64,000 bases of DNA from Chrysomallon squamiferum (Eukaryota > Animalia > Mollusca), in assembly GCA_012295275.1 (NCBI GenBank), contig CM022677.1, positions 12,710,001 to 12,774,000 of the forward strand, read 5' to 3'. The notes under the pieces are model-generated. The model searched no databases, was not told where the DNA came from, and saw nothing but the letters and a program-made list of their open reading frames with translations. Position numbers and translations under genes: made by a program. Below, one piece after another: positions 12,654 to 40,759 of the stretch; position 1 is the stretch's first letter, and each line of letters opens with the position of its first letter.

Positions 12654-12925
12654 GTGTCTGTTATGTATGTATGTATATATTATTATGCTAAAGGATTTAA
12701 TTATAAAATTTAGTTTATAAAACTAAATATAACCAAGGTTAACAGCTGACATTAAATTACGATTTTTCAGAGAAGTTCTTTGAACGACTGAGTCATAACG
12801 CTGACTGGAGACCGATTAGTACAGTGACGTCACACGTGCATAAACCAGCTGAGCTACAGCAGCCGGGCCCTGTTGTGTCTTCTTATGTAAGAATGATACG
12901 TAACCAGTTTTGAAACTTTGGAAAA

Positions 12926-14792
12926 ATGTATGTTGTGAAGACCGTTCTACTTTTAGCGTTCTGCAGATTATGTCTGGGCAACATTCACCCATTACCAGCC
13001 TCCGAGGTTCGAGATAAACACCGGATACATTTTCGATCAAACGCTTTGTCAAAGAAGGTAGTGTTTTTAACAGGCTACGAAATCATTAATTTTTACTTCT
13101 GTCTGAAGAAAACAAGCTCGGTAAAAATCTCCAGTTTACGATACTCCAATGGCAACGATCCTGAAAACATCACAGCAGTTTTAAACCAGAAGAAAATGGG
13201 ATCCATTGTCACCATATCACCAGAAACAGCCGGAGATAAGTGGAATGTTTTTCATTTCAGTACCGAGATGAAAGGATCAGTAATTCTGGAAAGAGGTTGG
13301 TATATTTTAAAGCTCCAGGTTCACGGATCTGATGGAGTGGAACTGAACACAGTCAGTCTAGATATTGATGACAGCAGTCTCGCGCAGGACATGATGCAGT
13401 GTAAACTTCACTGTACGAGTGATCTGCCCCATCTGAACTCTTCGACACGCAATTAATGTCGACAAAAAAGCTAAACTTAGACAGAAAAGTTACCAATCTA
13501 AATGTGCGGAAGAGGACAATGTGAAAATACCAGTATACCTCGACAGCGTGAAACAGTACAAACTAATAGCTACTCTACCAGTGTATAAAGCTTTTGTAAA
13601 CAGAAGAGAACCAAATAATACTGACTGTGTTGCTTTGTCTCCTCTCTACTGGAGTTTTACCCACCTCTGTTTGAATAAAATAAATAATCATTTAGTTTCA
13701 AATTCGGCAACTATGAAAGTGTATCCAGGACCTAGTACATCGAAAATAGCCGTAATTGAAATTTCATTCATGTTAAAAGGAAGATCAGAAGGTTACATAG
13801 ATGCTGATATTGGGTCAGTCTTCAGTCTAAAAATCAAACCAGTGACCTCATTTGTAAAATTATAGGTTTCATACAGAGACAGAAACTAAAATTTAATTGC
13901 GCTCAAAGAGACTGGTTTACAACCCGGGAAAACTGACGTCGATTGGCAAATCCCAAACCTTTCTTGGATCGAACACAACGTAAATCTGATCAAAATTTCA
14001 TTATCCGCACAGGATGTATTTTCCATTTGTATCGAAGAAATAAAATTGGAAAGAAAACCTATGAAACCTGAAAAATATTTTCCTATATACACCAGTAAGG
14101 AGTTCACTGTTATAGGTGTTGATATAGACTTTTGGTGGAGAAATCCGGAAACAATGAAAGTATATGTAAAAAATACTGACAAGCTTCATAGAAAAGTAGA
14201 CTATTTTAAAATAATTCTTCCAGTTCCTTGGTCAGAGGGTTACAGTGAGACACTTGTTATCTATCAAGATGGAAACGTACGCCTACTGCCCCTCCCTCCT
14301 GCAGGATTAGACTGGATTCCGTTTGGAACATCAGTTGTGGTTGGAACATGCGATGTTGACCTGATCAGACCTGCTGCTCCCATTGATCAAGTGGATATCG
14401 ACGTCGATAAACGAGAGCTGAAGATTCTTTACAGAAATGGAGAAAAAGCAAAGCTGACGTTGATTTCGAAAGTGGACAGAACGGAACTCGTTGTTTCTGA
14501 TCTCATATTTAAACAGTCCAGTAAGGGATTTCCATTTGCCACATTCCGATCAATGTACGTCGACGAGGGCAACACAGACAGCGACAGCATCATGGTGGAC
14601 AGCTCCAGCGTGTTCGGCGTCATGGAGAACCTGAATGGTGTACATGGAAAAACGTTTACACTTTTCAGAAGATGCGAATCCAAACATCTGACTCTCAGTC
14701 CGGATATCCATCTGGAGTTATTGCGCACGCGCTACTCAGTATTGTTGTCAGGTAATCAGTCAGTTTTAAATAACATGACAGTTCACATGTAA
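12926..14792 (+). pseudogene. Intronless ~620-codon secreted-protein gene, disrupted; N-terminal beta-sandwich possibly carbohydrate-binding-module-like
   Basis: Signal-peptide-like start MYVVKTVLLLAFCRLCLG. ORFs 12926-13456, 13521-13865 and 14046-14792 join through one frameshift near 13440 and two in-frame stops (13863, 13887). Protein-like composition throughout; the domain call is inference from the LRYSNG..WNVF..LERGWYILKL pattern. Confidence 0.7.
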
Positions 14793-20886: not shown

Positions 20887-21644
20887 AAAAATAAAAAAAT
20901 AAATAAATATTTATTTCACTGAAGGCAAAACTGAGAGAGCCGCCGCATTTTAAACTGTAGAAAGAAAAAAGAGTCATATGGGACTGTTGTAATACATATA
21001 TATATATATATATAGATCAGATTATTTTGAGAAAATAAATCAACCGATTTCGTGTATAATGGAACACATTAATCTTTCTGAAAAGTAAATTTCATGAAAA
21101 ATATTTAAAAAAATATATAAAAGTGCGCATGTCCTCCATGCCATGTGATGATGTGTTCAGGTTACGTGACGACAGCAACCTCGAGGACTGTTAATAGGAA
21201 CCTGAATGTTCGGGAAACACAGCGGCGAAACGTGGATGTTACGTTTTCATGTTCGTAAATATCTTCATCAACTCCATACCAAAAAGTATTAAAATGTCAT
21301 ATTGTATCGGGATACATCCTTCCCGAATCGATGTATCGTATCGGGGCCTTTGTATCACAATACGATTCTGTATCGTAGTAATCGTTACAGCTCTGGTGCA
21401 TACATATTTCTGTGTGTGTGCGTGTGTGCGTGTCTGTGTGTCTGTGAGCGCGCGTGTTTTTGTGCGTGCGTGCTTTGAAGTAGATGGTCAAACAGGCACA
21501 GAAGTATCTAAAAAATATTAATTAATATTTATATGCCTTTGTTTCTTCGTTTGTCCTCCGTTTTAAATATTTTATTTGTGAAATCAGATCTAGCGATTTA
21601 TCCAGGACTAGTTTATGTTGTAGTTGTTGTTAGTATCGTTGCTG

Positions 21645-21872
21645 TTTTAACTCGAAGGTGACTAGCTCCTTCGGGCGTAGCCCGAGCCCTACGGTCATAA
21701 GTTAAAAGTACATATTGGCTTTTAAGGCCAAAAACCAAAAACCATTCGTGTTATACATTGTTTTTTCAATAATAAACAAGAGTTGGGTTGGGATCTATCA
21801 TGTCCCTAATTCACACCCACGTGGTCTATTGCGTTATAGTCACGTGATCTCTCGCGCTATAGTACGACTGTT
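21645..21872. repeat. EVE1 left terminus: terminal hairpin (21645-21707) plus ITR (21701-21872)
   Basis: ttttaac-[49-nt GC-rich branched palindrome]-gttaaaa. 21701-21872 is the reverse complement of 24592-24763 with one mismatch and contains two CACGTG boxes. Confidence 0.95.
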
Positions 21873-21953
21873 TTACTAAGTTAATAGGATCTATACGTTA
21901 TAACACGTTTATATATTTAATACAGATAACAACGATATATTAAATTTTAAAAT

Positions 21954-21959
21954 TTTATT
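21954..21959 (-). terminator. Polyadenylation signal for the EVE1 capsid gene
   Basis: AATAAA on the minus strand about 45 nt after the VP stop codon. Confidence 0.55.
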
Positions 21960-22002
21960 TAACTTATGATAACATATTTACATAATATTAATGTTTAACA
22001 AA

Positions 22003-24123
22003 TTAAATTGGATAAGACCAATCAAAAGCATTTCCCATGGTTTCGACTGTTCTATCTCCATAGGCACCGTGTAACGGCCATAACTGTCTACGTCTATTTC
22101 TACGTTTGTTCCAATTGTCCCATACGGGAGCAAAGCATCTCATTTTCCATGTTTTCTGAATTCTTTCTTTGTATTTAGCTTCTTCTTCACCTAGAAACTG
22201 ATCTTGCTCAGTATGCTTAATGTTATCTTTGTTACCCATAGGCGTTGTTTCATTTTTCTTATATATCAGTCCTTGCATGTTACCTGGACAACCTCCTAAA
22301 CCTATTGGAATGTACTTAGGATACATTCCAGTTCTAACGACAAATTCGATCTCACTGTAATAAGTGATCTGAATGTTTGCATGATAATTAAAATACAATG
22401 TACTTCCACCACTTGTTTTCTCGACATCTGGATATAATCCAATTAGAAATATAGGTGGTCTGTTACATTGATACGTACGCCTATGAGAACCATCTTTACA
22501 TACGTCTACGTTAGGATTATTAGCATTGTTATGCATGACACCTTGATTACTTAATTTAGTGCCACCATCATCTACCATAGATGGTGCACCAAGTACATTA
22601 GATGCTTTATTCTGAAAACACGCTGTATAATGTATACGTCTATATTGATGATTGAAATAACAACATATCGCTGTACCCATTGGATGCTGTGTAGTATTAG
22701 TAACTATAATATCATGTGTTGGCCAGACTTCTAGATTACCTTTGTTTTCATTAGCACATTGATACTTAGATTTCTGACATAAACCAGAAATGTCTGTGAA
22801 ATTGAGAGTATGAGATGTTTCTGATGGAAATAAGATTAACGGTGAATCCTTGCACGTATAATCTAATGCAAAACCGCCAGCACTAATAACAGTTTCACGA
22901 TAACCATCGTGTTTTTTCATATCGTATATGTAATTTGGAGAAAGAGCTGTATATTCTACTCCGTCACCTGTCCAAGCATGATTTAACATTTGCATTGCCA
23001 TATCACTTGGTAAATACAATTTTCTATCAGGTTGAACAGGGATACTTCTATTGCTTACATCGTCCATACAGTCTTCGTCTTTAAAATAATAATTATGAGA
23101 CAACATTAAATTTTTTTCTGGTAACCCATAATCGTTATTTATATCGGTAAACGTCCAAACACGAGCGTTTGGTGGTGCCATAACAGGTACTTCGTTAGGA
23201 TCTGCTTTGTTATTATTTAAAACGTGAATAAGCATATTATTTATATTGAAACCTATTCTTTTGATTCTGTATCCCATGAAATCATCAGGTAAATTCCAAT
23301 CTTCTGGTTTAGTACTGGCGGCTTTGTACCAATATGGTATAATATGTCCTCCGTGATTAAACGTAAATTCGCATACATTAGGATCACCTATAGCTTTTTT
23401 CCAATTAACATTATCTGAATTATTGTCTAATACCTTCATTTCAGCTTTTCTATTTTTGGTAAAATTAATAGTACTTGTAAATGTTCGTTTAAATGTCTTT
23501 TTAATCGTAATGTATCTAGGATCCGTTCCTTTGGTAGTTCCACCAAAACCTTGATATAGAACATTATTACCAGTAGTCGATGCCATTGGAGCACCTTCGA
23601 CAGCTTCGCTCCCTCCGGTGTCTGTGACTTCTTCATTTGCAATGGAATCAGGTTCCATAACAGATTCTTCTGGTTGTAAATATGTACCTCTGGAATTCGA
23701 TTGTTCCAATACATCTTGCGAAACTACGTTGGATAACTGTGTGTTATTAGATCTTTTAGCAGAGCTACCACCGTACGGTTCATCAGATGGTCTCTTCATA
23801 GCTTGTTTATCACTATATCCGGACGAGAATTGCTGATCTCTTTGTCGTTGTACATCATTTGCGAGTATAGCGGGGTCTTTAACGTCGTCTTCGTCCGAAT
23901 CTTCAATAGCGTTATAGTTTTGCCAAAGATTTTGAATTGCCTGATAGAAATTTCTATTCGGAACTTGTATATTTGGATACTGACGTCTGACCTGTAACCA
24001 TTGTTGCTGTCTTTCTCTATAGGGGACATTTTGATCAGCTAGCTTGTCGAACAACGTAGCTTTAGCAGCAGCCCAAAGTCTATTTATAGCCTTTCTGCTT
24101 AATAATTGTTTTCCTTTAATCAT
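22003..24123 (-). CDS. VP: Parvovirus/densovirus-like capsid protein, 706 aa, intact
   Basis: Uninterrupted intronless ORF inside ITRs. A low-complexity G/S/T-rich region precedes jelly-roll-like strands (YITIKKTFKRTF, GHIIPYW, YRIKRIGFNI, PPIFLIGL, YHANIQITYYSEIEF). The C-terminal 200 aa align with the ORF next to NS1 in EVE2. No PLA2 HDxxY motif seen. Confidence 0.85.
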   Translation of the reverse strand: MIKGKQLLSRKAINRLWAAAKATLFDKLADQNVPYRERQQQWLQVRRQYPNIQVPNRNFYQAIQNLWQNYNAIEDSDEDDVKDPAILANDVQRQRDQQFSSGYSDKQAMKRPSDEPYGGSSAKRSNNTQLSNVVSQDVLEQSNSRGTYLQPEESVMEPDSIANEEVTDTGGSEAVEGAPMASTTGNNVLYQGFGGTTKGTDPRYITIKKTFKRTFTSTINFTKNRKAEMKVLDNNSDNVNWKKAIGDPNVCEFTFNHGGHIIPYWYKAASTKPEDWNLPDDFMGYRIKRIGFNINNMLIHVLNNNKADPNEVPVMAPPNARVWTFTDINNDYGLPEKNLMLSHNYYFKDEDCMDDVSNRSIPVQPDRKLYLPSDMAMQMLNHAWTGDGVEYTALSPNYIYDMKKHDGYRETVISAGGFALDYTCKDSPLILFPSETSHTLNFTDISGLCQKSKYQCANENKGNLEVWPTHDIIVTNTTQHPMGTAICCYFNHQYRRIHYTACFQNKASNVLGAPSMVDDGGTKLSNQGVMHNNANNPNVDVCKDGSHRRTYQCNRPPIFLIGLYPDVEKTSGGSTLYFNYHANIQITYYSEIEFVVRTGMYPKYIPIGLGGCPGNMQGLIYKKNETTPMGNKDNIKHTEQDQFLGEEEAKYKERIQKTWKMRCFAPVWDNWNKRRNRRRQLWPLHGAYGDRTVETMGNAFDWSYPI

Positions 24124-24132
24124 GAACTCTGA

Positions 24133-24489
24133 TTATGTCTGTTTAAATATGTAACGTTTTTCTCCTTCCTCTTCTTCTAACAAATGACGTTCGGCTGGTG
24201 TAACGTTTTTGTCAATGTCTTTACCAGTATCGGTTGATACGAATTCATCAAATTGATTCAAAGCTTCTTCTATTTGATTCTTTGTATAAGTAGAAATTCC
24301 TTCCACTGAAGCTTCTACAATAGATTGACCAATAGCTGTAGCTGGTTCTAATATGGCACTTTCTGCACCAATCAATTCAGATATGGCAGGAGCTGTAGAT
24401 TCTAATATAGCGTTTGTAGCTAAACCAACTGATGCATCAAATGCGTACTCTATTATCTCTGTAGCTATAATGCCTAACGCAGTGAACAT
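24133..24489 (-). CDS. 118-aa acidic, amphipathic viral ORF upstream of VP (candidate minor capsid or VP1-unique module)
   Basis: ATG about 60 nt after the TATA box; intact; stops 9 nt before the VP ATG and is in the same reading frame. Confidence 0.75.
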   Translation of the reverse strand: MFTALGIIATEIIEYAFDASVGLATNAILESTAPAISELIGAESAILEPATAIGQSIVEASVEGISTYTKNQIEEALNQFDEFVSTDTGKDIDKNVTPAERHLLEEEEGEKRYIFKQT

Positions 24490-24551
24490 GCTATCTCATC
24501 GAACGTTTATGATGGAATGATGTTAATATTTGAAAACATAACGATATCTGC

Positions 24552-24573
24552 ATTTATACCGGATATGACATCA
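24552..24573 (-). promoter_or_regulatory. EVE1 structural-gene promoter (CRE-like TGATGTCA + GGTATAAAT)
   Basis: Motifs lie just inside the ITR; same layout as TGACGTCA..GGTATAAAT upstream of NS1 in EVE2. Confidence 0.65.
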
Positions 24574-24591
24574 TATACTATATTTAAATAT

Positions 24592-24788
24592 AACAGTCGT
24601 ACTATAGCGCGAGAGATCACGTGACTATAACGCAATAGACCACGTGGGTGTGAATTAGGGACATGATAGATCCCAACCCAACTCTTGTTTATTATTGAAA
24701 AAACAATGTATAACACGAATGGTTTTTGGTTTTTGGCCTTGAAAGCCAATATGTACTTTTAACCCGAAGGTGACTAGCTCCTTCGGGC
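24592..24788. repeat. EVE1 right ITR plus half hairpin in the alternative (flop) orientation
   Basis: 24592-24763 is an inverted copy of 21701-21872. 24764-24788 (ccgaaggtgactagctccttcgggc) is a direct, not inverted, copy of 21652-21676. Confidence 0.95.
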
Positions 24789-25007
24789 ACCGGATGTATC
24801 GAAAAAGTCATTAAGTATGTTTAAAATATCGGCATCATTATCGTGAATCTCTTTTTCCATCTCATTCCAGATATTAAGCATGGCTTGATCTGTTGTTCCT
24901 AAAAATTGTTTTTCTGAATCATTCATCAAATATTTCATATAGTCTTGAAGTGATGTTCTTTGTGGGTCTTTAAGTTTCATGATTTTCAAATATTGTGTAT
25001 ATTTTAT
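24789..25007 (-). pseudogene. NS1: Internal fragment of a parvoviral NS1 (HUH motif III region)
   Basis: QYLKIMKLKDPQRTSLQDYMKYLMNDSEKQFLGTTDQAMLNIW aligns with EVE2 NS1 GYIKLRKLRQPYKYSVSEFMNYLIRDDEKMFLGTNCPDMLNKW. Confidence 0.85.
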
Positions 25008-27690
25008 CCAAAGTTGAATGTTTGGGTTTGTGTTATGACGTTGTTGTTAATGTTTAGTGTGATTTTGTTGTTATCTGTTTTTTTGTTGAAAAGGAGGCAT
25101 GTCGTTTTGGAAAGAGAAATCTTTGTGCCCCATTTTAACGCCCAGTTGTTTATGTTGTTTAAGTCTTTTTGTATTGTTTCTGCCTGCACACCAAAAAGTG
25201 CAGTCGTCTGCAAAGAGTGCTGTGTTTTTTCGTTCGGTTGGTGGATTGTTGGTGTTGTCTTGTTTGTCAAGTGCTGTGATGATGTCGTTGATGTAGATGT
25301 TGCAGAGTGTGGGCGAGATAACGGATCCTTGTGGGATGCCATTTTCGATTGTCATTTTCTCTGAGGTGTGACCATTTACTTTGACTGCTATGGATCTGTT
25401 GTTGATGAAGTCTTTGATAAACTTGAACATGTTGCCTTTGATGTTGTTGTTGGTTAATTTGATGAGCAGTCCTTCCCTCCATACCATGTCAAAGGCTTTT
25501 TCAATGTCTAGGAATACTGTGATGACTTTTTTTTCCTAAAAGATAGGTTGATTATTGTTTGCAGACAGGTGATCTGGTTGTTTGTACTGTGTTTCTTCTT
25601 GAAGCTGCTTTGATATTTGCTGATTAAATTGTTGTTGTTTAGATGCTGGCTCAGGTGTGATTGATCATCATTTCCAGTGTTTTGCACATGTGTGACGTCA
25701 GTGTGATCGGCCTGTAGCTGTTGGGTAGTAAGTGATCTTTGTGTGGTTTGGGCCAAGCTGAAACATTCGGCATATTTCCAGTTTGTTGTAATCTTACCTG
25801 TTGTCCATATTGTGTTGTAGAGATCGAGTAAGATTAGTAGTGTTTCATCTGGTAGGTGTTGTAGTATTGTGTAGCTTATTTTATCTGGCCCTGTGGCTGT
25901 ACTTTTCTTGTTTTTGAGGGCATGATTTAATTCGCTGATGTTGAAGAGTTGATTGTATTTCAAGTGTTCTGTGTCTGAGAAATGTTTGTTGATTGTTAGG
26001 TTGTCCAGTGGTTTCTTTGTGAATTTCAGTAGGAAGGTTGAGTTGCTGCTGGACTTGGTGAAAGTTTTACTGAGTAGATCTGCTTTTTGTTTGTCAGTGA
26101 ATGCGATGTTGTTTTTGTCGAGAGTGTTGATTCTGTGGTTTTTATTTGCCTTGGATGTCTTTCACTTTGGCCCACATGTCTTTGACTGATGTTTTGTGGT
26201 CGATGTTGTTGCAAAAGAGTTCCCAGTGTTCTTGTTTTGCACTGAGAATTAGATTGGAAACTTGTTTTTTTGCTATTTTGTATTTTTGTCTGTGGAATGA
26301 TTTCTGTCTTTTTTGTATTGTCTTCTGAATTTGTTTCTTTCTTTGCATTTCTTTTCTATGTGTTCCATCCACCAGGGAGTGGATATTTTGTCGGTGCATT
26401 GTCTGGTTTTGGGTATGAATTTGTTTGCAGTGGAGTATATTGTGCTGGTGAGTGATGTGCAGTAGGTGTTGATGTGGTTGGGGTTTATGTGGTGATGTTT
26501 CTGCATGCTTTGTAGAAGCCTTCCCAGTTCGCTTTGTTGAAGTTCCATTTGGATGTGAAAATGGATCTGTCCAAGAAAGTGTTCTTGCAGTTGGTGAGTA
26601 TTGGGTGATGGTCGCTGTTTAATTCATTGAGCACTTGCCATTCACAGAGCACTGTGATGTCCTTACTTTGTGGATGTTAGATCAATGGCGGATTGGCTAC
26701 TATTGATGTCACTGGTGTATGTGAATGTTCCGTCGTTCAAACAGACCAGCTGGTTTTGCTCTATGAAATTTTCAAGGATGATTCCAAGACTGTCGTCTGT
26801 CGAGCCACCCTATAAGGTGTTGTGACAGTTGAAATCACCCACTATAAAGAGCTTGTTGTTTGTTGTGATCATTTTGTTTAAGTCGTGGGTTTGAATGGTG
26901 TGTAGTGCGGGAATGGATGGGCTGTACATTTTAATTGTGTTGATGTTTTGATTGTTATTGTGTACTGTGATGCTTAGTATTTCTATGTTGGTGTGAACTT
27001 TGGCTTGGTTCAGCTTGGTGTGTGGAATGTCTTGTTTGACGAGTGTCATGATGTCTCCCCGGGTGCTGAGACTTTGATACCCGGGGACCTTAAAAGCTTT
27101 TGTTGTTTTGTTGTTTTTATTGTGTCCTAGCCATGTTTCTTGTATATGCATATTACGTCTGGTGTGTTTTGAGTGGAGGCCAGGAAGTGTACGAGTTTGT
27201 CTCTGTGGCCTGCTGAGTTGTTGTTACTGTTTGGTGTTTCTTTTGTTCATTGCTGTTTTGTGTTTGTGGGATTTCTCTTGTCTGTGTGTAATTTAAGTCT
27301 TTGTTGACTGTGGAGATCTTGAAGCCCAAGCTGTCTTCGATTATTGAAGTCGTCTGTGATGTTTTCTTGGTTGTTTCTGATGTTGTGCAGTTCGATGAGG
27401 AGGAAGACAATAATTTTGTGTATTTCTGCAATTCTGACCTCCTTTGTTCGATTTTGGGGCATTTTTTGTTAACGTTTCGTAGAATTTTGTTTTCTCATCT
27501 GTTGTAATATTTGATGGACACATTTTGTAATGTGGTGTGTGTGGACCCTGGCAATTCGCGCACTTTGCCAGAGAACAGCATTGGCCTGAGTTTCTGTGGT
27601 GATTTCCACTGCAGACAGTGTCTGCACTTGGGCAACTGCGGCCTCATTTCTGTGAGCGTCTCTGTACCCATCAATGGTGATGGTTGTGTT
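25008..27690 (-). mobile_element. Degenerate I-group LINE (ORF1 zinc knuckle, APE endonuclease, RT), 3'-truncated at the viral junction
   Basis: ORF1 knuckle KCANCQGPHTPHYKMCP (~27515-27570); APE motifs IQETWL and FIVGDFNCHN; RT motifs GPDKISYTILQHL, DIEKAFDMVWREGL, GIPQGSVISPTL and LFADD; many frameshifts. Confidence 0.93.
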
Positions 27691-27894
27691 TGTTAATTAC
27701 CTTCTAAATGTCAGCTTGGTCCAGTAGCTTGGATTTTTCCATATTTCCACACCGAATAATTTAGCTTTTGTTTGTTGTATTACTTCTTTGTTGAACATCT
27801 CAAAGAAATCATGCTTGTATACATACAGGTAATAAAACCCAAATCTTTGGAGACGTATTTGTGAAATGTTGTTTCTTTGTTTTTGTTGACTGGG

Positions 27895-28240
27895 TTACTG
27901 TTGTTGTGTAATGAGTATTTGTTTGGGTTGTTGTTGTTGTGTAATGAGTGTTTGTTTTGGCTACTGTTGTTGTGTAATGAGTGTTTGTTTTGGCTGCTGT
28001 TGTTGAGTAATGAGTGTTTGTTTTGGCTGCTGTTGTTGTGTAATGAGTATTTGTTTGGGTTGCTGTTGTTGTGTAATGAGTGATTGTTTTGGCTGCTGTT
28101 GTTGAGTAATGAGTGTTTGTTTGGGTTGCTGTTGTTGTGTAATGAGTGTTTGTTTTGGCTGTTGTTGTTGTGTAATGAGTGTGTGTTTTGGTTGCTGTTG
28201 TTGTCTAATGAGTGTTTGTTTTGGCTGCTGTTGTGTGAGC
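27895..28240. repeat. 33-bp minisatellite, about 10 copies
   Basis: Unit tgtaatgagtgtttgttttggctgctgttgttg. Confidence 0.95.
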
Positions 28241-29589
28241 AGTGTTTTCCTGGATTGTGGTGTGGGTGTTTTCTTTGTTTGTTGTCAACAGAGGAAAACC
28301 CTGACAGTAAATACTTCATCCCAGATAGTTATGCTGGGACCTATAGCTTTTAATGATTTTTTATCTATTTCGAAATATATTTGTTTTCCAGTTTGATTTT
28401 TGTTCATTTTAGTTATTTTGTAGATGATGTGTATTTGCGCTTCTAATAAATATCGATGTCTGTGGGGTTTTTTGTGAATCGCGATGGTGACTCGGTGTTC
28501 AATACGTTTTATTTTTTTCCTTTTTATTGTTTCCCAAATGTATCATAATATTATTTTAGATGTCATAATATGCAACAGTTTTTGCAGCCAGAAAATAACA
28601 AATGATCCCAAATAAATCCTTTTTTTACAAAACGATTTAAATCAAGATTGATTAAAAACAAATTACCAGATAATTTTCATTTTTATTATTATGTGTGTGT
28701 GTGTGTGTGTTTGCTATCTTCTGTCTTCTTGTTTCTTCTTTTCTTCTTGTTTTTTCTTATTCCTGTGTTTATTTATATTTGTTTTAATTTTTGTGTTTTC
28801 TTTAAAGTTATTTTTTTGTTTATTTTTTTTATCCTATTTACCATGATTATTGTTGCTTCTTTTCTTTTACATTGCAATTTCTTCAAAATCTTCCTTTTCT
28901 TCTTGTGTGTACCTCTTGTCTGTGTTGATTTTCGGTTATTTTATTCATAAGCAAGATTTTTGTAATATACAATTTACTTACTATTTTTTTTTTTTCTATA
29001 TTTTTTCTTTCCACAGAACTGACATGGGTTTCACATCAATGAAAAAGAAACAGCAGTCAGCACCAAAAACACCAGTACCACCATTAGACCTGAGACAAAC
29101 TGACATCACCACACCAACCACTGAAAACTCAAACTCCTGTCCAAGAAACATCCAGACACACTAGAAAAGAAACCAGAAACACCACCACCCATTCCTGAGG
29201 TATTTCAGTAAAAATAATGTCTAAGAAAGAAAGTGAACAAACTGCTGAAACAATTCTGACAAAAGAAAAGAAATTAGTTTCAAAACTTTCTTTCAGTAAG
29301 GGTGACAGCGTGGAAGATATGCATCCACACACACAGAACAAGTTTGATCATTTTTGTTGAAAGCAGCCAGACCAAGACTTAAACTGACACAAGCTTTACA
29401 ACTTAGTCACTTAGTCAGATGTTAAAAACTTAAAAAAATATTCAGGTGAACATGTCTGTAAATATGTCTTAGTCTATCTGTCTGTTTCTCTCTCTGTCTG
29501 CCTCCCTATTTATTTATTTTATTTTTATGTCTGCTTTTCTGTTTGTGTGTATTTCTTTCCTTGAAAATGTTCAGATAAATATGTTTGTC

Positions 29590-30659: not shown

Positions 30660-33600
30660 AGATAATTACTACTAGACAGATAATAGTGAATGTGTGTGTA
30701 TATCAGCAATAGTGATAATTACTTCTACACAGGTAATGTGTGTGTGTGTGTTTGTGTGAGTGTGTGTTTCAGCAATAATTGCTACTACTCTGTTAATAGT
30801 GTGTGTGTGTGAGTGTGTGTGTGTTTCAGCAATTGTGATAATTGCTACTACTCTGATAATAGTGTGTGTGTGTGTGTGTGTGTGTGTATCAGCAATAGTG
30901 TTAATTCCTACTACTAAGATAAAATAGTCTGTGTTTATGAGTGAATCAGGAATAATGTAATTGCTACTCAGATAATAGTGTGTGTGTGTGTGTGTGTCTG
31001 TTTCAGTGAATCAGCAATAGTGTGTGAGTGAATCAGCTACTCAGATAATACTACTAATGATACAATAGTGTGTTTGTGAGTGAGTGTGTGTATATCAGCA
31101 ATAGTGATAATTGCTACTAATGATACAATAGTATGTTTGTGAGTGAGTGTGTATCAGCAATAGTGAAAGTTGCTACTACAGAGACAATTGTGTGTGAGTG
31201 AGTGTGTGTGTCAGAAATAGTGTTAATTGCTACTACTCTCATAATAGTGATAATTCCTACTCAGATAAAGTGTGTGTGTGTGTGTGTGTGTGTGTGTCTA
31301 AATAGTGATAATTGCTATTCAGATAATGAGAATGTGTGAGTGAATCAGCAGTACTGATAATTGCTACTCAGATGAGTGAATGTGTGAGTGTATCAGCAAC
31401 AGTGGTTATTACTACTCTTGTAATAGTGAGTGTGTGTTTCAGCAATAATTGCTACTACTCTGATAATAATGTGTGTGAGAGTGAGTGTGTGTTTCAGCAG
31501 TAATGATAATTGCTACTACTCAGCTAAAAGTGTGTGTGAGTGAGTATCAGAAATAGTGATAATTGCTTATAATAGTGTGTATGTGTGAGAGTTAGTGTAT
31601 CAGTAATAGTGAGTGTGTGTATCAGCAATAGTGTTAATTGCTACTACTGATAATAGTGTGTGTGTGTGAGTGAGTGAGTGTATCAGCAATAGTGATAATT
31701 GCTACTACTCTGATAATAGTGTGTGTGTGAGTGAATCTGCAATAGTGATAATTGCTACTCAGAAATTAGTATGTGTGTATCAGCAATAGTGATAATTGCT
31801 ACTACTCAGACAATAGTGTGTGTGTGAGTGTGTATCAGCAATAGTGAGTGATAATTGCTTCTACTCAGATAATCTGTGTGTGAGTGAATGAGCAATAGTG
31901 ATAATTGCTACTCAGAAAGTAGTTTGTGTGTATCAGCAATAGTGATAATTCCTACTACTCAGATAATAGTGCATGTGTATAAGTGAGTGTGTGTGTATCA
32001 GCAATAGTGTTAATTTCTACTCAGATAATGTGAATCTGTGATGAATCAGCAATAATGATAATTGCTACTCAGATAATGTGAATGTGTGAGTGAATCAGCA
32101 ATAGTGATAATAGCTACTCAGATAATAAATAATGGGTATGTGCGTGTGTGTGTGTGTGAGAGTGAGTGTCAGTGTATCAGCAGTAGTGATACTTTCTACT
32201 CAGATAATGGTGTGTATGTGTGAATGAGTTTGATTGTATCAGTGATACTGATAATTGCTACTCTGATAATGTGTGAATGTGTGAGTATATCAGCAATAGT
32301 GTGTGAGTGAGTGAATCAGCAATAGTGATTATTGCTACTCAGGTAATGGTGTGTATGTGTGAGTGAGTTTGAGTTCATGAGCCATAGTTATAATTGCTAC
32401 TACTCAGATGCTAATGTGTGTATATTAGCAATGGAGATAATTACTACTACTCAGATAATAGGTGTGTGTGTGAGTGTGTGTATCAACAATAGTGATAAGT
32501 GCTACTCAGATAATAGTATGTTTGTGAGTATGAGTGTATCAGTAATAGTGATAATTGCTACTACTCAGATAATGTGTGTGTCAGCAATAGTCATAATTGA
32601 TTGTCAGATAATTTGTGTGTGAGTGAATCAGCAATAGCGATACTTTCTACTTAGATAATGTGTTTATGTGTGAGTGAATCAGCAATAGTGATAACTGACA
32701 CTCAGGCAATGTGTGTGTGTTAATTGCGACTACTGTCATAAAAATGTGAAATGGTGATAATTCCTACTCAGGTAATAATGTGTTTGTGTGTGTATATCAT
32801 CAATAGTGATAATTGCTACTCCGATAATGAGAATGTGTGAGTGAATCAGCAATAGTGATAATTGCTACTCAGATAATAGTGTGAGTAAGTGAGTGTGTGT
32901 ATCAGCAATAATGATAATTGTTACTACTCTGATAATAGTGTGTGTGTGTGTGTGTGAGTGAGTGTATCAGCAATAGTTATAATTGCTACTACTCTGATAT
33001 TAGTGAGTGTGTATGTGTGAGTGAGTGTGTGTTTCAGAAATAATTACTACTCTGATAATTGTGTGTGTGTATGAGTGAATGAGTGTATCAGCAATAGTGA
33101 TAATTGCTACTACTCAGATAATAGTGTGTGTATGTGTGTGAGCGAGTGTGTTTGTATCAGCAATAGTGTAAATTGTTAATGTGTGCATGTGCGTGTTTGG
33201 TGTCATCCCATCTTGTCAAATCCCATTTTGCCAAAATTAATACAGAAATAACAACGTGACCCTACCTCGCTGCTGAATGGGTTAATCCAACGTGGTAAAT
33301 GTATTATTTGTTGTGAGTCTTGTGTGATCATTTATTTCTTGAAAATCTGTTAATGCTCCTTTGTTTCACAAATTATTTTTTTTAGGTTATTAATCAATCT
33401 TCTCTGTCAGTTAAAAACAGTCAAATCTTGTGCCTATGTTTTTTGGAAAATTGGTTAATCTTCCTTTGTTTTACATAGTTTTCTTTAACCTGTTGATCAA
33501 ATTTTCCTTGGCTTGTTTAACATTTTAAGTTGCATCCCGTGATGTTCTCCTCTTGCCCTGGTTTGTGTAACACGTTTTACATTGTGCATGGATTCTTTGT

Positions 33601-34220
33601 TTCCCTCTCGTGTTTGTGTCGTTGCCAGGTTCCATTCAAGGCTCAACAGAGCTCTTCCAAACCAGCACCCCAACATCTACAAGTTTGTAGACCTCATCAT
33701 CTCAAGAGACAGTTGTAAGCTGGAGCCAAGACACCTCTCCAGTACCTCCATGTAGTTGTACACCTTGTGAAACTTGAACTTCGTGTATCTGAACACAGTG
33801 TCCCTGTATATAGTGCTTGAACTCTGAATAATACTATCTCTGAACATAGTGCTTGAATATTAAATACACAAATACACAAATTCAACTTGTTTTGTTACTC
33901 CTCTGTGGCCGGTACATGGGATTTGATAGGATGGGATGACACTCAACCCTGTGGCCTAGTCCACTGTCTTATTTGAGTACCGTGAATGGGATTAGTGATT
34001 TATTTATGACTTCCACAAGATGGAATAGAACCATGTGTTTGTGTGTGAGAGAGCGTGTGTATCAGCAATAGTGATTATTGCTACTCAGGTAATGTGTTTG
34101 TGTGTGGGGGTGAATGTGAGTTTATGAGCAAAAGTTATCATTGCTACTCAGATAATAGTGTGTGTGTGAGTGAGTGTGTATCAGCAATAGTGATAACTTC
34201 TACTCTGATAATGTATGTGG
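30660..34220. repeat. Compound satellite (~50-65-bp units with variable GT tract), interrupted at ~33190-34030
   Basis: Dozens of copies of atcagcaatagtgataattgctactactcagataatag(tg)n. Confidence 0.95.
33200..33942 (+). mobile_element. Non-autonomous MULE-like DNA transposon inserted in the satellite
   Basis: 27-bp TIRs (gtgtcatcccatcttgtcaaatcccat / atgggatttgataggatgggatgacac, 2 mismatches); internal remnant FHSRLNRALPNQHPNIYKFVDLI..KTPLQYL resembles MULE transposase C-termini. Confidence 0.75.
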
Positions 34221-34519
34221 GTGTATGTTAAGAAGTATTTGGTTATCAGTTTACATTCAAATGCTGTGTACAAAATTATCAGGCCTGTTTTATTTAAATT
34301 TAAGATTCAGACAGATGGTAAGCTTGACATAATAAATTATTTTTATATTTTTCAGTTAAAAAAATACTAATTTTTATAAAATTAAATTATATTTTAATAC
34401 AAAATAATCAGCACCAAAAATATCAGCAGCAATATGTAATGTGGTGGTGATAGTAGCAACTATGATGTTGTAATAGTAGCACCAGCATCAGCAGTAGTAA
34501 TAAATAAATAAATAAATAG

Positions 34520-36302: not shown

Positions 36303-36440
36303 TGTTACATCTACCTAATCCTATTAACTATATATCTATTTACCAGTGTATGTCTACAATAACCTGTCTGTCTGTCTGTTGGTCTACATCATCAACCTAT
36401 CTATCTACCCAATATCTACCAGTCTCTAAATAATGTTACT

Positions 36441-36717
36441 TAATAAATTTATCTATGTACCTCTGTATTCTTTTATTTTACATTTGTCTATTTGTCTAAC
36501 TTTCTGTCTGTCTGTAAGTCTGTGACTTTATGTAATTTAGTCTGTTTGTTTATCTATATATCTATCTATGTCTATATATATATATATATTAATAAATTTA
36601 TCTATGTACCTCTGTATTCTTTTATTTTACATTTGTCTATTTGTCTAACTTTCTGTCTGTCTGTAAGTCTGTGACTTTATGTAATTTAGTCTGTTTGTTT
36701 ATCTATATATCTATCTA

Positions 36718-36753
<36 letters not shown>

Positions 36754-36892
36754 TAGATAGATATATAGATAAACAAACAGACTAAATTACATAAAAAATC
36801 TTATTATGACAGACAGAAAGTTAGACAAATAGACAAATGTAAAATAAAAAAATACAGAGGTACATAGATAAATTTATTAATATATATATATA
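36441..36892. repeat. ~150-bp unit: two direct copies plus one inverted copy forming a palindrome centred on (TA)n
   Basis: 36441-36589 is duplicated at 36590-36740; the reverse complement is at ~36745-36890. Confidence 0.85.
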
Positions 36893-37015
36893 TGTAAACG
36901 TATAATCTGTAAATATCTGTTTTGGCAATTTTTTCTGTTAATATTTCTCCCAACTGTAACATTGTTCTTTAACACTAACAATGATTATTATGAATAATTA
37001 AAAATGTGTTTATTG

Positions 37016-37215: not shown

Positions 37216-37818
37216 AATGCTGCAGGTGAAGAATTGGGTGCACCTGCTATGGCAAGTGATCCTTCGAATAAACTTGCTAAAAAAGGAGTAACTGCAATTG
37301 ACATTAGTTCTCAGAATTATAATACAGAAATGGATGGTTCTCATAGAAGAACTTATCAATGTAACAGACCACCTATGTTTCTCATTGGTATATACGCAGA
37401 CGTAGAAAAGACTAGTAGTGGCAACACCTTATTTTTTAATTATCATGCTAATCTACAGATTACATATTGCAGTGAAGTAGAGTTCATAGTAAGAACAGGA
37501 TTCTGTCCTAAGTATATTGCTATAGGACTAGGTGGTTGTCCAGGTCCCATGTGAGGTCTGTATATGTATGGTAAGGATGTAGCCGGAAATAAAGATGTCG
37601 TTAAACATACTGAACAAGATCAATTCTTAAGTGAAAATTCACAACAATATGTCGAACGAATACGTAAAACATGGGAAATGAGAATTGCTGCTCCTATATG
37701 GGACAATTCGAATCGAAGAAAGTCGAGGCGACGAGTTGTCTGGCCATTACATGGAACATACGGAGACAGAACGGTTCCAATTAAAGAAAACGAAACCGAT
37801 TATTCTTATCCTATTTAA
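37216..37818 (+). pseudogene. VP: Capsid protein C-terminal ~200 codons, one in-frame stop
   Basis: Shares DGSHRRTYQCNRPP, FNYHANxQITY, IGLGGCPG, KHTEQDQFL, WPLHGxYGDRTV and SYPI* with the EVE1 VP; TGA at 37552-37554. Confidence 0.9.
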
Positions 37819-37964
37819 ATAATTATTCATTGTTCATATTAGTTAGTTAATTACTTATCGTTAATTACTATTTTAAAAGAACTATTTGTTATTACGCTGT
37901 GTAAGAACACAGTGAAAAGTCTGTTGTGTTATAGATCTCGTAACATTTCGTTACCTCATATCAA

Positions 37965-37994
37965 TGACGTCATGTAAATATTGGTATAAATAAA
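37965..37994 (+). promoter_or_regulatory. NS promoter (TGACGTCA + GGTATAAAT) overlapping an AATAAA
   Basis: CRE palindrome at 37965-37972, TATA at 37985-37990, AATAAA at 37989-37994; ATG in a good context (cactATG) at 38080. Confidence 0.65.
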
Positions 37995-38079
37995 GCTGAC
38001 GTTCAAAAATATTTTTGTCGTTTGTCATTAATTGACTTGCTACACGTTAAAAGAAGCATAGTTATAATCCAGCACCACT

Positions 38080-40214
38080 ATGCAGAAATATATTGAAGAC
38101 GCTACTAATACTTTTGAATATTACTCAATTATATTGGGACATAAAGAGTACGACTTGGTGCATCCCAACTATCTGGTTCCAAGATGCCTTGCGAAAGATA
38201 GGAACGGAAAATATGTTTACGCCACGGGAAAGAATTATATCAAGAGTTTCGTCATGGACCACCAAGACATTCTAGACAAGTGCGTGGACCATTGGTCGAC
38301 TCCGCAATCGGAGTTCATGATGAGAGGTCAGGATAGAGTGATAACTGAACTTAAAAACATGTTAAGGAATAGAAACTGGAAGATGCTGTTAGTGTACCAC
38401 GATAAATAGTGTGATATTGACTCCAACATACCTACAAATGGAAGTCATGTCCATATCATATGGAAAACAACCATGACACATCCAAGTCAAGATCGTCAAT
38501 ACAGACGTTTACACCGAGCTGTTCTGGCTGAAAAAGGGTATATAAAGTTAAGGAAGTTACGTCAGCCATACAAATACTCTGTATCTGAATTCATGAACTA
38601 CTTAATAAGAGATGACGAGAAAATGTTTTTAGGAACAAATTGTCCGGACATGCTCAATAAATGGATTCTATTACTGGATCAAGAACAAAACTGGCTAATA
38701 GACGATTATAATGAAAATACTGTATTCGAAGACACGTCTATCAACGAAGATATAAAGACATTTGAAGTTAAGCCTCCCAAGAAAAAAATGACGGTTCAGG
38801 AATTTTTAAATGAACACAATGACGTGTTACAACATGGACAAGGAATGACAGTAAAGGAGATAAATCAAGAAACAAAGAACATTATAGACATTGATGATGA
38901 TATTCCAACTAACAAGCCTGAAAAGATTCCAAGTCACCTCATGTCTACCAAATCAGCAGACACATTTGACTTTTTTTTACAAATTGGTTCAAAAGTATCC
39001 AGATGTGAATAAACTCAATATGCTCATAAGCAAATTTGATACATCGAGCAATGAATTTAAAGCTCTTTGTAATACTGTTGCCAACATATCTGGAGAAAAA
39101 ATATTTAAAGCAGCAAGAACCAAATACCTAATGGAACAAGCAGATAAAAGTGCCTACGATCAGATAAAAGCTCTCGACGATACCTAGAAAATTATATGAC
39201 ATCAGAAGATTCTTTGAAACTATTTAACAGTTGGTGCCAGGAACAAGAGATACCAGAGCGATGGTTCTATGTACTAATGAATACCCTTTTGAAAGGCAAA
39301 GGCAAAAAGAAAATTGGAATCTATTTACAAGGCGAGAGCGATTCCGGCAAGACAATGTTGTCGTCGAGTTTGTTTGAACCTTTGACATGTTCCGGTAAAA
39401 TAGCGAAAGACAATTTTCCATGGCAGATGCTGGGTGACAAAAAATTGTTATTGGAGAAGAAATCGCTATTACCCAAGTAAACAGAGACAAATACAAAGAT
39501 CTTCTCAGTGGCAGTAAGGCAACATGCGAGCGAAAGGGAACGACACCGGTGTATTGCAAAGCAAGCTTATGTATTTTAAACAGCAACATTCCTTTTGGAC
39601 AGAACATTACATCAACTCAAATGAGTATTATGAAAACTAGATTGTACTTCATCGAGCACTTGAAGAAAAGCAATACACTAAAACGAGCTAAATTATTCAC
39701 CTTGTGCGAAGATCCATCCGAAGACGAAATAATGGTTGCGATTGAAAACGATAAACAATTCTTTAACGATAAACTCAATCCACTACAAAATGACAAGACA
39801 ATTCAAGCTAAGTATAGTTACTTCCATGACTCTTTTGACAACGAATCACAAGAATCACGTGGAGTAAAGAGGCAATATGATAACATCGAAGCCTATATAG
39901 AAAATGAAGAGAAAGATCTCAATCAGAATGAAGACATCATCAATGAATCTCCAAAGAAGAAACGAAAAATTCTGAAAGCAAAACGATCAGACTGTGATAC
40001 GATAAGTGGTAACACGTCAGATGAACATTCTCAAGATCTGTTTATAGCATCTGAAGATGACAACAACCCTGCTGATAATACAGTTCCAGAAGCGTATATG
40101 AATAATAACCAAGCTTTGGAATTGATATCGAAGACATTATTCCGCCATCGCAAATTAATTATAAAGTGTTTGACATTTTTCGTTCCTATAAATGATATCA
40201 TTGGTGCTGTTTAA
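38080..40214 (+). pseudogene. NS1: Parvoviral NS1 replicase (HUH endonuclease + SF3 helicase), ~710 codons, disrupted
   Basis: Reading through TAG 38407 gives GSHVHIIW (HUH, 38446-38454); motif III NYLIRDDEK; Walker A GESDSGKT (39331-39354); Walker B IGEE after a frameshift near 39440; B' KDLLSG..ERK; motif C CILNSN; NLS PKKKRK (39951-39968). Frameshifts at ~38975, ~39180 and ~39440. Confidence 0.93.
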
Positions 40215-40387
40215 AATGTTAATCATAGTTACATTGTTACGTTAATAAAAGTTAAATAATTAAATTTACTTAGTTTGTCATATGTTTATATTAATTTTAT
40301 ATATAAATACAATGAAAAATAACATTATTAATAAATAAAAAAAAATAAAATAAAAAATGAAGTCGCTGAAAATTATATTTCAACTGT

Positions 40388-40560
40388 ACTCTTGTTATTG
40401 TAAAAAAACAACAAAGTTTAACTCATATTGGCTTTTGGCTTTTTGGCTTTTTAACCAAATGTACTTTTAACTTATGATCCTTCGGGTTTTGGCTTCGCCC
40501 GAAGGAACATTATCACCTTCGGGTTAAAAGTACATTTGTTAAAAAGCCAATAACAAGAGT
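40388..40560. repeat. EVE2 terminal hairpin 1
   Basis: Stem ttggctttttaaccaaatgtacttttaac / gttaaaagtacatttgttaaaaagccaa around a 51-nt branched core homologous to the EVE1 core; outer actcttgtta/taacaagagt also pair. Confidence 0.92.
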
Positions 40561-40564
40561 TTAG

Positions 40565-40759
40565 TTGTCAACCTAACTCTTATGATTTGCAAAGATCCTC
40601 ATTACTGGCTTTTGGCTTTTTGACCAAATGTACTTTAACGTATGCTCCTTCGGGCGAAGCCTAAGCACCTTCGGGTTAAAAGTACTTTTGGTCAAAAAGC
40701 CAAAAGCCAGTAATGAAGATCTTTGTTTTTTTTACAAATCACAAGAGTTAGGTTGACAA
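40565..40759. repeat. EVE2 terminal hairpin 2 (variant), ~75-bp arms
   Basis: Long imperfect palindrome around the 35-nt core gtatgctccttcgggcgaagcctaagcaccttcgg; a third partial arm lies at 40845-40890. Confidence 0.92.

Follow-up and report, generated by a model that had tools for sequence, protein, structure and literature searches.

The window analysed is the whole stretch of 64,000 nt from Chrysomallon squamiferum (GCA_012295275.1, CM022677.1, positions 12,710,001 to 12,774,000, forward strand), and two of its viral elements, EVE1 and EVE2, are described here. EVE1 (21645–24788, 3.14 kb) carries a capsid gene without NS1 and keeps both viral ends. The features of EVE1 and its right neighbours are as follows.

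21645–21651, outer hairpin stem remnant, 7 nt, pairing with 21701–21707
21652–21700, whole asymmetric hairpin core, 49 nt, centre at 21676; a related core is present in EVE2
21701–21875, plus strand, left ITR arm, 173/175 identical to the right arm
21728–21741, plus strand, two 7-nt direct repeats near the hairpin, also in the EVE2 arms
21818–21863, plus strand, 2 × 23-nt tandem repeat with two CACGTG boxes, inner arm
21954–21959, minus strand, AATAAA, candidate polyA signal downstream of the capsid ORF
22003–24123, minus strand, capsid (VP) ORF, 706 aa, open, no PLA2 motif
24133–24489, minus strand, small upstream ORF, 118 aa as assembled, 3′ end uncertain
24553–24558, minus strand, TATAAA, candidate capsid-cassette promoter between the right arm and the small ORF
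24589–24763, minus strand, right ITR arm, 173/175 identical to the left arm
24764–24788, half core, first 25 nt of the core, direct relative to the left core and stopping at the core centre
24789–24992, minus strand, NS1 gene fragment from the end of the nuclease half, joined directly to the half core on the same contigs
24993–28250 (ends approximate), minus strand, decayed LINE-type retroelement (Pfam RVT_1, E 6.3e-21 at 25074–25535)

The EVE1 capsid matches 690-aa relatives (P0004/P0011) at 52% over their full length, and its first matches in the Atlas are parvoviral capsid clusters (0.94, 203/256 features). It gave no Pfam match and no PDB sequence match, and its AlphaFold model (pLDDT 31.9) is too poor for a fold search. 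The small upstream ORF has no Pfam match and no Atlas match above 0.83. A scan for the PLA2 motif (YLGPG and HDxxY patterns) found no match in the capsid or the small ORF, nor in relatives P0001–P0020; some members of the Densovirinae and Parvovirinae also lack PLA2.

The two 175-nt arms are inverted relative to each other, as stated in the first-pass annotation, which had also placed the hairpin cores beyond them in direct orientation at both ends. This second point was confirmed: 21645–21676 and 24757–24788 match directly at 31 of 32 positions (BLAST E 1.6e-8), with 200 shuffled 32-mers reaching no more than 22/32 across the window, and the 25 nt of core at the right end (24764–24788 against 21652–21676) agree with the direct core at 24/25 positions and with the inverted core at 6/25. 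The core is asymmetric, matching its own reverse complement at 14 of 49 positions, so that its direction can be read. As assembled, it lies in both orientations relative to the inner arm, the pattern of flip and flop isomers. The claim that two hairpins are preserved did not hold, since only the left core is whole (49 nt); the right end retains 25/49 core bases and no outer stem, and then runs into the NS1 fragment. The right-end break corresponds to 21676, exactly halfway through the 49-nt core.

Folding of the left end (21645–21707), one of the checks proposed earlier, gave a hairpin of −12.7 kcal/mol (z −3.0, 2/200 shuffles as good). Y-shaped and I-shaped folds of the core lie within about 0.1–1 kcal/mol of each other, and the axis of both is at 21676–21679. 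The first 2 nt of the 7-nt stem remnant also fit the host flank, and other family copies have 23–68 nt of outer arm at this position. By analogy with parvovirus origins, we take the repeats at 21728–21741 to be candidate NS1-binding repeats, and the tandem repeat with its CACGTG boxes may supply promoter elements. Two further candidates were dropped: a 4-bp helix seemingly covarying among three cores, with pair probabilities of only 0.0–0.34, and a resemblance of one arm motif to the nicking site of AAV, the motif facing the wrong way.

EVE1 extends about 230 nt past the TATA box (24558) and about 310 nt past the polyA signal (21959), through both arms. The marks of a retroposed mRNA (bounds at a cap site and polyA tail, a target-site duplication, no termini) are not those of EVE1, at which no target-site duplication of note and no polyA tail were found. 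Since the arms and hairpin lie outside 24558 and 21959, the earlier proposal of entry as DNA, not as reverse-transcribed mRNA, is well supported whatever the core orientation. The accompanying proposal of flip/flop isomers, and hence of replication by NS1, is compatible with the termini, but the pattern is not diagnostic, because the same letters would arise from opening either isomer of a closed hairpin at the axis, or from a head-to-tail junction that had been copied off a circle. Replication of the deleted unit by NS1 in trans is plausible.

The right neighbour of the half core is viral rather than host DNA. The NS1 fragment is on the minus strand, like the capsid gene, and its translation matches the NS1 of EVE2 (48% over 42 aa, E 1.5e-8) and P0020 (39% over 72 aa). 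Contigs were examined from X1–X5, five of the ten sequencing runs listed, as evidence of presence and not of absence. The arm end, half core and NS1 fragment lie together on single contigs with no differences in X1 and X5 (24734–24992, 30 arm bases) and in X2 (24751–24992, 13 arm bases), and an X3 contig covers 24771–24992 with 3 differences. The right junction is thus present in 4/4 runs examined for it (X1, X2, X3 and X5), from three studies, and an X4 contig has the identical arm-to-half-core joint. The first-pass annotation had allowed that the right core could be an assembly collapse of the left; finding the junction on contigs of three studies shows that it is not. In the present assembly the NS1 fragment is truncated by the LINE-type retroelement, contig depth being very high from 24969. 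One X3 contig instead continues from 24992 into sequence resembling the 3′ end of the capsid gene, which by the length of the record (intervening letters not displayed) lies some 660 bases off. A head-to-tail neighbour in which the capsid precedes NS1 would be expected to look like this, the distance in EVE2 being 727 bases. The description of EVE1 as a capsid-only unit is right for 21645–24788, but this unit is one part of a composite viral insert that also holds an NS1 fragment and whose far end is outside view.

At the left end, contigs carrying the flank exit the window sequence at 21646 in X1, X2, X4 and X5. In all four of these runs, the depth at 21634–21641 (within 21570–21800) equals that of one contig exiting at 21646. 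Among the contigs listed for these runs, which can attest presence but not absence, none crosses the left host junction. The other sequence into which the left flank continues is not found in the window. Contigs of X1, X2 and X3 run from the capsid 3′ end straight into the left arm (33, 33 and 74 arm bases); X5 contigs, read in the same way as evidence of presence only, give no cover at 21882–22028. An arm-core-arm contig has the same letters for either isomer, and contigs cannot phase the core across a 175-nt arm in a multi-copy family, so the left-end isomer, like the host junction, is that of the assembly alone.

The direct orientation could be a product of left-end assembly, in which the arm was joined to the core and flank of another copy. 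The family is multi-copy (359 X1 contigs match, 193 of them at 90–95% likeness), the left flank lies on contigs that turn into other sequence at 21646, and the window differs from all examined runs at a few single places. Against this, the left end carries its own differences from the right, two in the arm and one in the direct repeat, as well as a clean 2-nt overlap with the flank, and contigs of X1, X2 and X5 span the left core-to-arm link with 0–1 differences. A polymorphic insertion would explain the other flank contigs equally well, and misassembly of the left end is considered highly improbable.

EVE2 (37216–40890) carries the NS1 gene that EVE1 lacks and has the following parts.

37216–37818, plus strand, 3′ part of the capsid gene, broken by a stop; the 5′ part is lost in a 200-N gap
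37819–38079, plus strand, capsid-NS1 linker, 261 nt, with TGACGTCA at 37965 and TATAAA (37985) overlapping AATAAA (37989)
38080–40214, plus strand, NS1 gene, broken by a stop and frameshifts, with HUH motif and SF3 Walker A present
40388–40890, hairpin array at the end of EVE2, two whole hairpins and one partial, cores and arms related to EVE1

EVE1 is linked to its NS1-bearing relatives through both the capsid (62% over 203 aa to that of EVE2, E 6e-70) and the termini (79% over 145 nt between the EVE2 end and the EVE1 left end). The second EVE2 hairpin has 76–85-nt arms on both sides. P0003, a relative of the EVE2 NS1 (45–55% identity), matches Pfam Parvo_NS1 above the cut-off (E 2.1e-8), and its nearest solved structures are AAV Rep and NS1. 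Of the hallmarks of Parvoviridae, HUH and SF3 domains are found in EVE2 and its relatives and not in EVE1 itself, and terminal palindromic hairpins are present; as to a single jelly-roll capsid protein (T=1), what was observed is the Atlas match of the EVE1 capsid to parvoviral clusters; as regards linear ssDNA packaging, this parvovirus-like family is known here from integrated copies and contigs alone. The parent of EVE1 is best read as an undescribed, PLA2-less, homotelomeric parvovirus.

The order of capsid, NS1 and hairpin on one strand of EVE2 suggests that the viral lineage likely carries its capsid gene ahead of NS1. Co-oriented junctions run from terminus to capsid start in EVE1, and from capsid end to NS1 start and NS1 end to terminus in EVE2, so the gene order is pieced together from two integrated copies rather than from a whole genome. 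It is neither of the canonical orders, in which NS precedes VP on a single strand or the two cassettes converge (ambisense). When free relatives in their genomic context were sought, neither IMG/VR (capsid, NS1 alignment, terminal motif) nor JGI metagenomes (NS1 alignment, motif) gave a match. None of the 24 NS1-relative members looked up is a named virus. Contig size was checked for 13 cluster members from the nearest relatives of NS1, and seven of them are on contigs of 5.5–7.2 kb, judged by size and not by gene content; the long tails of the NS1 relatives show no likeness to the capsid or the small ORF. A word-matching search of mainly open-access literature found nothing relevant on a capsid-first or swapped order, or on capsid-only EVEs with ITRs.

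Rather than a deletion mutant, EVE1 might be a capsid segment whose parent virus had two segments, as in Acheta domesticus segmented densovirus (AdSDV). It is 3.14 kb long with its own promoter and polyA signal, an intact capsid ORF and matching ends; the segments of AdSDV measure about 3.3 kb and have their termini in common (PMC10267136), and in EVE2 the NS1 gene is followed by a related terminus. The EVE2 capsid and NS1 genes, however, are joined by a linker with overlapping TATA and polyA signals and no terminal-repeat sequence, NS1 relatives are on contigs of up to 7.2 kb, and no junction of a terminus to an NS1 start was found within the window. The AdSDV termini, moreover, are not ITRs (PMC10267136), and a segmented parent is held to be of very low probability. 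The EVE2 capsid-NS1 join and the size of the relatives' contigs argue for a one-piece parent.

On balance, EVE1 is a part of a parvovirus-like genome, capsid-only and with hairpin ends, that entered as DNA; it probably lost its NS1 cassette by deletion, and its right hairpin was probably opened at the axis and joined head-to-tail to viral DNA. The NS1 cassette would likely have been deleted from a one-piece homotelomeric genome, giving the capsid-only unit. The incoming genome may then have become duplex, with its left end extended and its right end a covalently closed hairpin, which host repair would have cut at the tip, the strand kept being the half core. The opened hairpin was likely joined head-to-tail to a fragment of another viral genome. 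Opening at the tip fits the break at the exact core centre, where both low-energy folds place the axis, and the head-to-tail join fits a junction partner that is viral and co-oriented. AAV deletion mutants likewise keep both ITRs and lose the middle (PMC8235507), and 69% of AAV breakpoints fall within one 19-bp ITR hairpin (PMC3918229). EVE1 offers a single breakpoint, though: of breaks falling by chance in the core, about 3 in 49 would come to lie no more than one base from its centre, and stalling of the polymerase at the hairpin is another way of placing breaks there (PMC3918229). Either strand can be kept, so the half core is silent on the right-end isomer, and under tip opening the two ends could about equally well have been opposite isomers (true flip/flop) or the same isomer.

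Two other routes lead to the same letters. In the first, a linear capsid-only genome with extended flip and flop ends, produced by NS1 terminal resolution, integrated and lost its outer parts by ordinary trimming. The direct match of the right core (24/25 versus 6/25) is as expected, and, read outward from the genes, the EVE1 left core and the first EVE2 hairpin face one way (39 identities and 2 gaps in the same orientation, 28 and 20 in the opposite) and the EVE1 right core the other. AAV ends flip or flop independently (PMC11575299), so half of all genomes would match. This route leaves the stop at the exact core centre unexplained and depends on a left isomer known from the assembly, and its letters are shared by two other routes; it is judged unlikely. 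In the second, a head-to-tail concatemer was rolled off a circle with one arm-core-arm junction, and internal deletions removed most of NS1. In head-to-tail concatemers of AAV, the ITRs at the junctions of any one molecule all point the same way (PMC11575299), and the NS1 fragment is upstream and co-oriented. Whole arm-core-arm contigs occur at several times the depth of junction contigs, but any extended end also gives such contigs. In another assembly several capsid and NS1 copies are on equal-sized contigs (8418, 60905 and 297455 bases). One circle would repeat one unit, however, and a capsid-only unit following an NS1-bearing one needs two extra deletions; the EVE2 end is also a jumbled hairpin array rather than a clean repeat junction. 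This second route appears very unlikely.

Like AAV2 and Bemisia tabaci ambidensovirus (BtaDV: 207-nt ITR, 55-nt flip-flop palindrome; PMC12297876), EVE1 has long ITRs that end in an imperfect palindrome whose core can invert; they measure at least 231 nt, with a 49-nt core. As in homotelomeric parvoviruses, NS1 has HUH and SF3 domains (EVE2 and relatives) and a capsid promoter (the EVE1 candidate) lies beside the terminus; unlike them, the EVE1 capsid has no PLA2 motif, EVE2 has the capsid first with NS1 on the same strand, and NS1 matches Pfam Parvo_NS1 weakly (E 2e-8). A BtaDV-like endogenous element of whitefly is described as one NS-side end fused to a host gene (PMC12297876), whereas EVE1 has both ends and is capsid-only. 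AdSDV also has capsid-only DNA of about 3 kb with hairpin ends, but its termini are T-shaped and not ITRs and it is a true segment (PMC10267136), whereas capsid and NS1 are joined in the related EVE2. There is also a likeness in form to AAV deletion mutants, ITR arrays and concatemers, with ITRs kept and the middle lost, breaks in the hairpin and virus-virus junctions; AAV ITR-repeat arrays resemble the EVE2 hairpin array. The AAV forms reported are somatic and from cell culture (PMC8235507, PMC11575299, PMC3918229), while those described here are inherited and present in individuals of three studies.

The flip/flop feature by itself is expected of homotelomeric parvoviruses and has an EVE precedent; it confirms the DNA route and settles no open question. 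The wider reading, for and against which the evidence is evenly balanced, is that both elements are young germ-line copies from a lineage of homotelomeric parvoviruses that lacks PLA2 and is so far undescribed, arranged on one strand as terminus, small ORF, capsid, internal promoter, NS1 and terminus, with relatives of up to about 7 kb, in which deletion mutants and concatemer junctions were fixed with their origins still readable. If the capsid-first order holds, the arrangement would lie outside both monosense and ambisense plans and would be one NS-cassette inversion from ambisense. The NS1 relatives number in the dozens, and their contigs reach 7.2 kb, more than the roughly 6.4 kb given for the largest known parvoviral genome (PMC13426907). 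For the lineage of these relatives, EVE1 and EVE2 supply the host link and the termini that are usually absent from metagenomic contigs. The EVE1 insert would be a snapshot of parvoviral DNA entering a germ line, with a deletion mutant, an axis-cut hairpin and a virus-to-virus join, steps so far seen mainly with AAV in culture, and the multi-copy family makes their breakpoints countable.

EVE1, a capsid-only parvovirus-like insert, occupies positions 21645–24788. Its arms, the inner parts of the inverted terminal repeats (21701–21875 and 24589–24763), are inverted with respect to each other and identical at 173 of 175 positions. Beyond the arms the orientation is direct: 21645–21676 and 24757–24788 match at 31 of 32 positions (BLAST E 1.6e-8), far exceeding chance, as the top match among 200 shuffled 32-mers was 22. 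This direct repeat consists of 7 nt of stem and 25 nt of the asymmetric 49-nt hairpin centre, or core (21652–21700), and the right end matches the left core at 24/25 positions in direct orientation versus 6/25 when inverted. The inverted arms and direct core reported in the first-pass annotation are therefore upheld, but not its two preserved hairpins, as EVE1 retains one whole core (left) and one half core (right), the latter breaking off at the very centre of the core, which corresponds to 21676 on the left. The left end self-folds as a hairpin (z −3.0), with Y-shaped and I-shaped folds of near-equal energy about a common axis at 21676–21679. The true stem of the EVE family is longer than these 7 nt, since whole arm-core-arm contigs carry 23–68 nt of outer arm. 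At the innermost stem (21701–21707), most family copies in the sequencing runs differ on both sides of the core with pairing kept, as expected when a stem is copied through the hairpin.

Ten independent sequencing runs were listed and three studies are represented, as contigs only; seven runs contain the EVE1 stretch or part of it, and five (X1–X5) were compared with the window. Single contigs of X1 and X5 read without a difference through 30 arm bases, the half core and the 204 bases that follow, and a single contig of X2 does the same with 13 arm bases. X3 covers the right end from 24771 onward, through the rest of the half core into the following bases, and the arm-to-half-core joint of X4 is the same as in the window. 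With the right joint on single contigs of several runs, the right end is not an assembly collapse of the left, a possibility the earlier annotation had raised. The left arm is joined to the capsid 3′ end on contigs of X1, X2 and X3. The family is multi-copy, most contigs compared being 90–95% alike. The left-end isomer is that of the assembly alone, because contigs cannot phase the core across the 175-nt arm and, among those listed (which show presence, not absence), none spans the left host junction. In the left flank, X3 and X5 contigs skip 235 nt (21293–21527) that include a GT microsatellite, taken to be a small insertion polymorphism.

Entry as DNA, also proposed previously, is secure because an mRNA copy would have neither arms nor hairpin; core orientation adds nothing to it. 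The direct pattern is not proof of flip/flop isomers, as three routes yield arm-then-first-half at the right end. In the route originally proposed, the right end was extended, in the opposite isomer, and subsequently trimmed. Covalently closed hairpin ends can be opened by the host, and if the right end was opened in this way at its tip, the strands would end in opposite core halves and the strand kept would become fixed. Since either strand may be kept, the geometry implies that either isomer could leave the right half core. The third route is a head-to-tail concatemer formed from a circle, with junctions all one way; in AAV, the junctions of head-to-tail concatemers share one orientation (PMC11575299). 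The exact-centre break favours opening of a closed hairpin at its tip, but only modestly, because AAV breakpoints are also concentrated in a hairpin through other causes (PMC3918229). Summed over the routes, the chance of true opposite isomers at the two ends is about even. Replication of the capsid-only unit by NS1 is plausible, by analogy with AAV deletion mutants (PMC8235507).

The features of EVE1 and its right neighbour are:
24123–22003, minus strand, capsid ORF of 706 aa, open
24558, TATA box, interior to the arms
21959, polyA signal, interior to the arms
24789–24992, minus strand (as the capsid), NS1 gene piece, right neighbour of EVE1

The 706-aa ORF shows 52% identity along its length to unnamed 690-aa proteins, its top Atlas matches are parvoviral capsid clusters, and a motif scan found no PLA2 motif in it. 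Upstream lies a small ORF with no Pfam match. Near the boundary of the two, 4/4 runs compared there are one base longer or shorter than the window, so the apparent in-frame stop between them is no ground for assuming read-through. The NS1 piece is cut off by a LINE in the window assembly, and an X3 contig that runs on from 24992 reaches, some 660 bases further, sequence resembling the 3′ end of the capsid gene (middle not shown). Contigs of X3 and X5 pass from 24992 into other sequence, and the LINE insertion (24993–28250) seems polymorphic; a 33-nt tandem array lies near its far end (27898–28234).

A related but more decayed element, EVE2 (37216–40890), lies 13 kb away and is about 70% alike in DNA, so that the same region was entered by two viruses related to each other, or by one lineage at two different ages. 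On one strand EVE2 carries the capsid 3′ part (62% aa identity to the EVE1 capsid), a 261-nt linker, an NS1 gene that is broken but has HUH and Walker A motifs and, at its end, an array of hairpins related to those of EVE1. The capsid-NS1 linker contains a CRE box as well as TATA and polyA signals that overlap, and no terminal sequence was found in it; a putative internal promoter would overlap the capsid polyA signal. Just before the N gap preceding EVE2, a 149-nt direct duplication and a 338-nt near-palindrome (36398–36902) may be an assembly artefact at a contig end. Elsewhere in the window are a long degenerate satellite array (30686–33178 and 34101–34227; units of ~48–65 nt) and three adjacent, coding-like plus-strand ORFs of 180, 142 and 300 aa (12914–14792), which gave no Pfam matches and may represent a host gene or a further mobile element.

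The two elements display four junctions. In EVE1 the capsid start and the capsid end are each joined to a terminus; in EVE2 the capsid end is joined to the NS1 start, and the NS1 end to a terminus. The X3 contig is likely a further case of capsid end to NS1 start. In the known parvovirus plans, which are monosense or ambisense, NS and VP take up the left and right halves (PMC12297876). Several rearrangements would be required from a canonical NS-then-VP parent. In a two-segment parent, the capsid-NS1 join must be accidental, probably twice. For a one-piece, capsid-first parent, one deletion would suffice. Literature searches, which are weak evidence, found no capsid-first order among the entries listed.

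P0003, a relative of the EVE2 NS1, belongs to Pfam Parvo_NS1 and has AAV Rep as its nearest structure. A profile of six NS1 relatives matched 185 proteins at E ≤0.001 (37 of them at 1e-30), with 25–42% identity to P0003 in the 28 matches checked; look-ups for 20 of 150 listed proteins yielded 24 cluster members, all of them unnamed. In one set looked up, 7 of 13 relatives sit on contigs of 5.5–7.2 kb, which fit a one-piece genome in size, their genes not being read. Many proteins of the NS1 clade P0021–P0044 have 930–1120 aa, and the contigs of the clade (seen by size, not gene content) reach 7245 bases, exceeding the roughly 6.4 kb given for the largest known parvoviral genome in PMC13426907. 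To judge by P0001 and P0003–P0019, single contigs of another assembly appear to contain several copies of capsid and NS1, and the contig sizes common to these copies (8418, 60905, 297455 and 452437) suggest tandem integration in a related host.

The NS1 and hairpin characteristic of Parvoviridae are present through EVE1's relatives; EVE1 lacks PLA2, and the cassette order of the EVE1/EVE2 lineage is not the canonical one. A whitefly EVE with a hairpin core kept at its end is a precedent (PMC12297876), and beetles have yielded parvoviral EVEs that are near-complete (PMC13426907, section 3.3). In its workings EVE1 resembles a deletion mutant of a homotelomeric parvovirus that was caught at a concatemer junction. 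The direct-core finding is real, although partly over-read.
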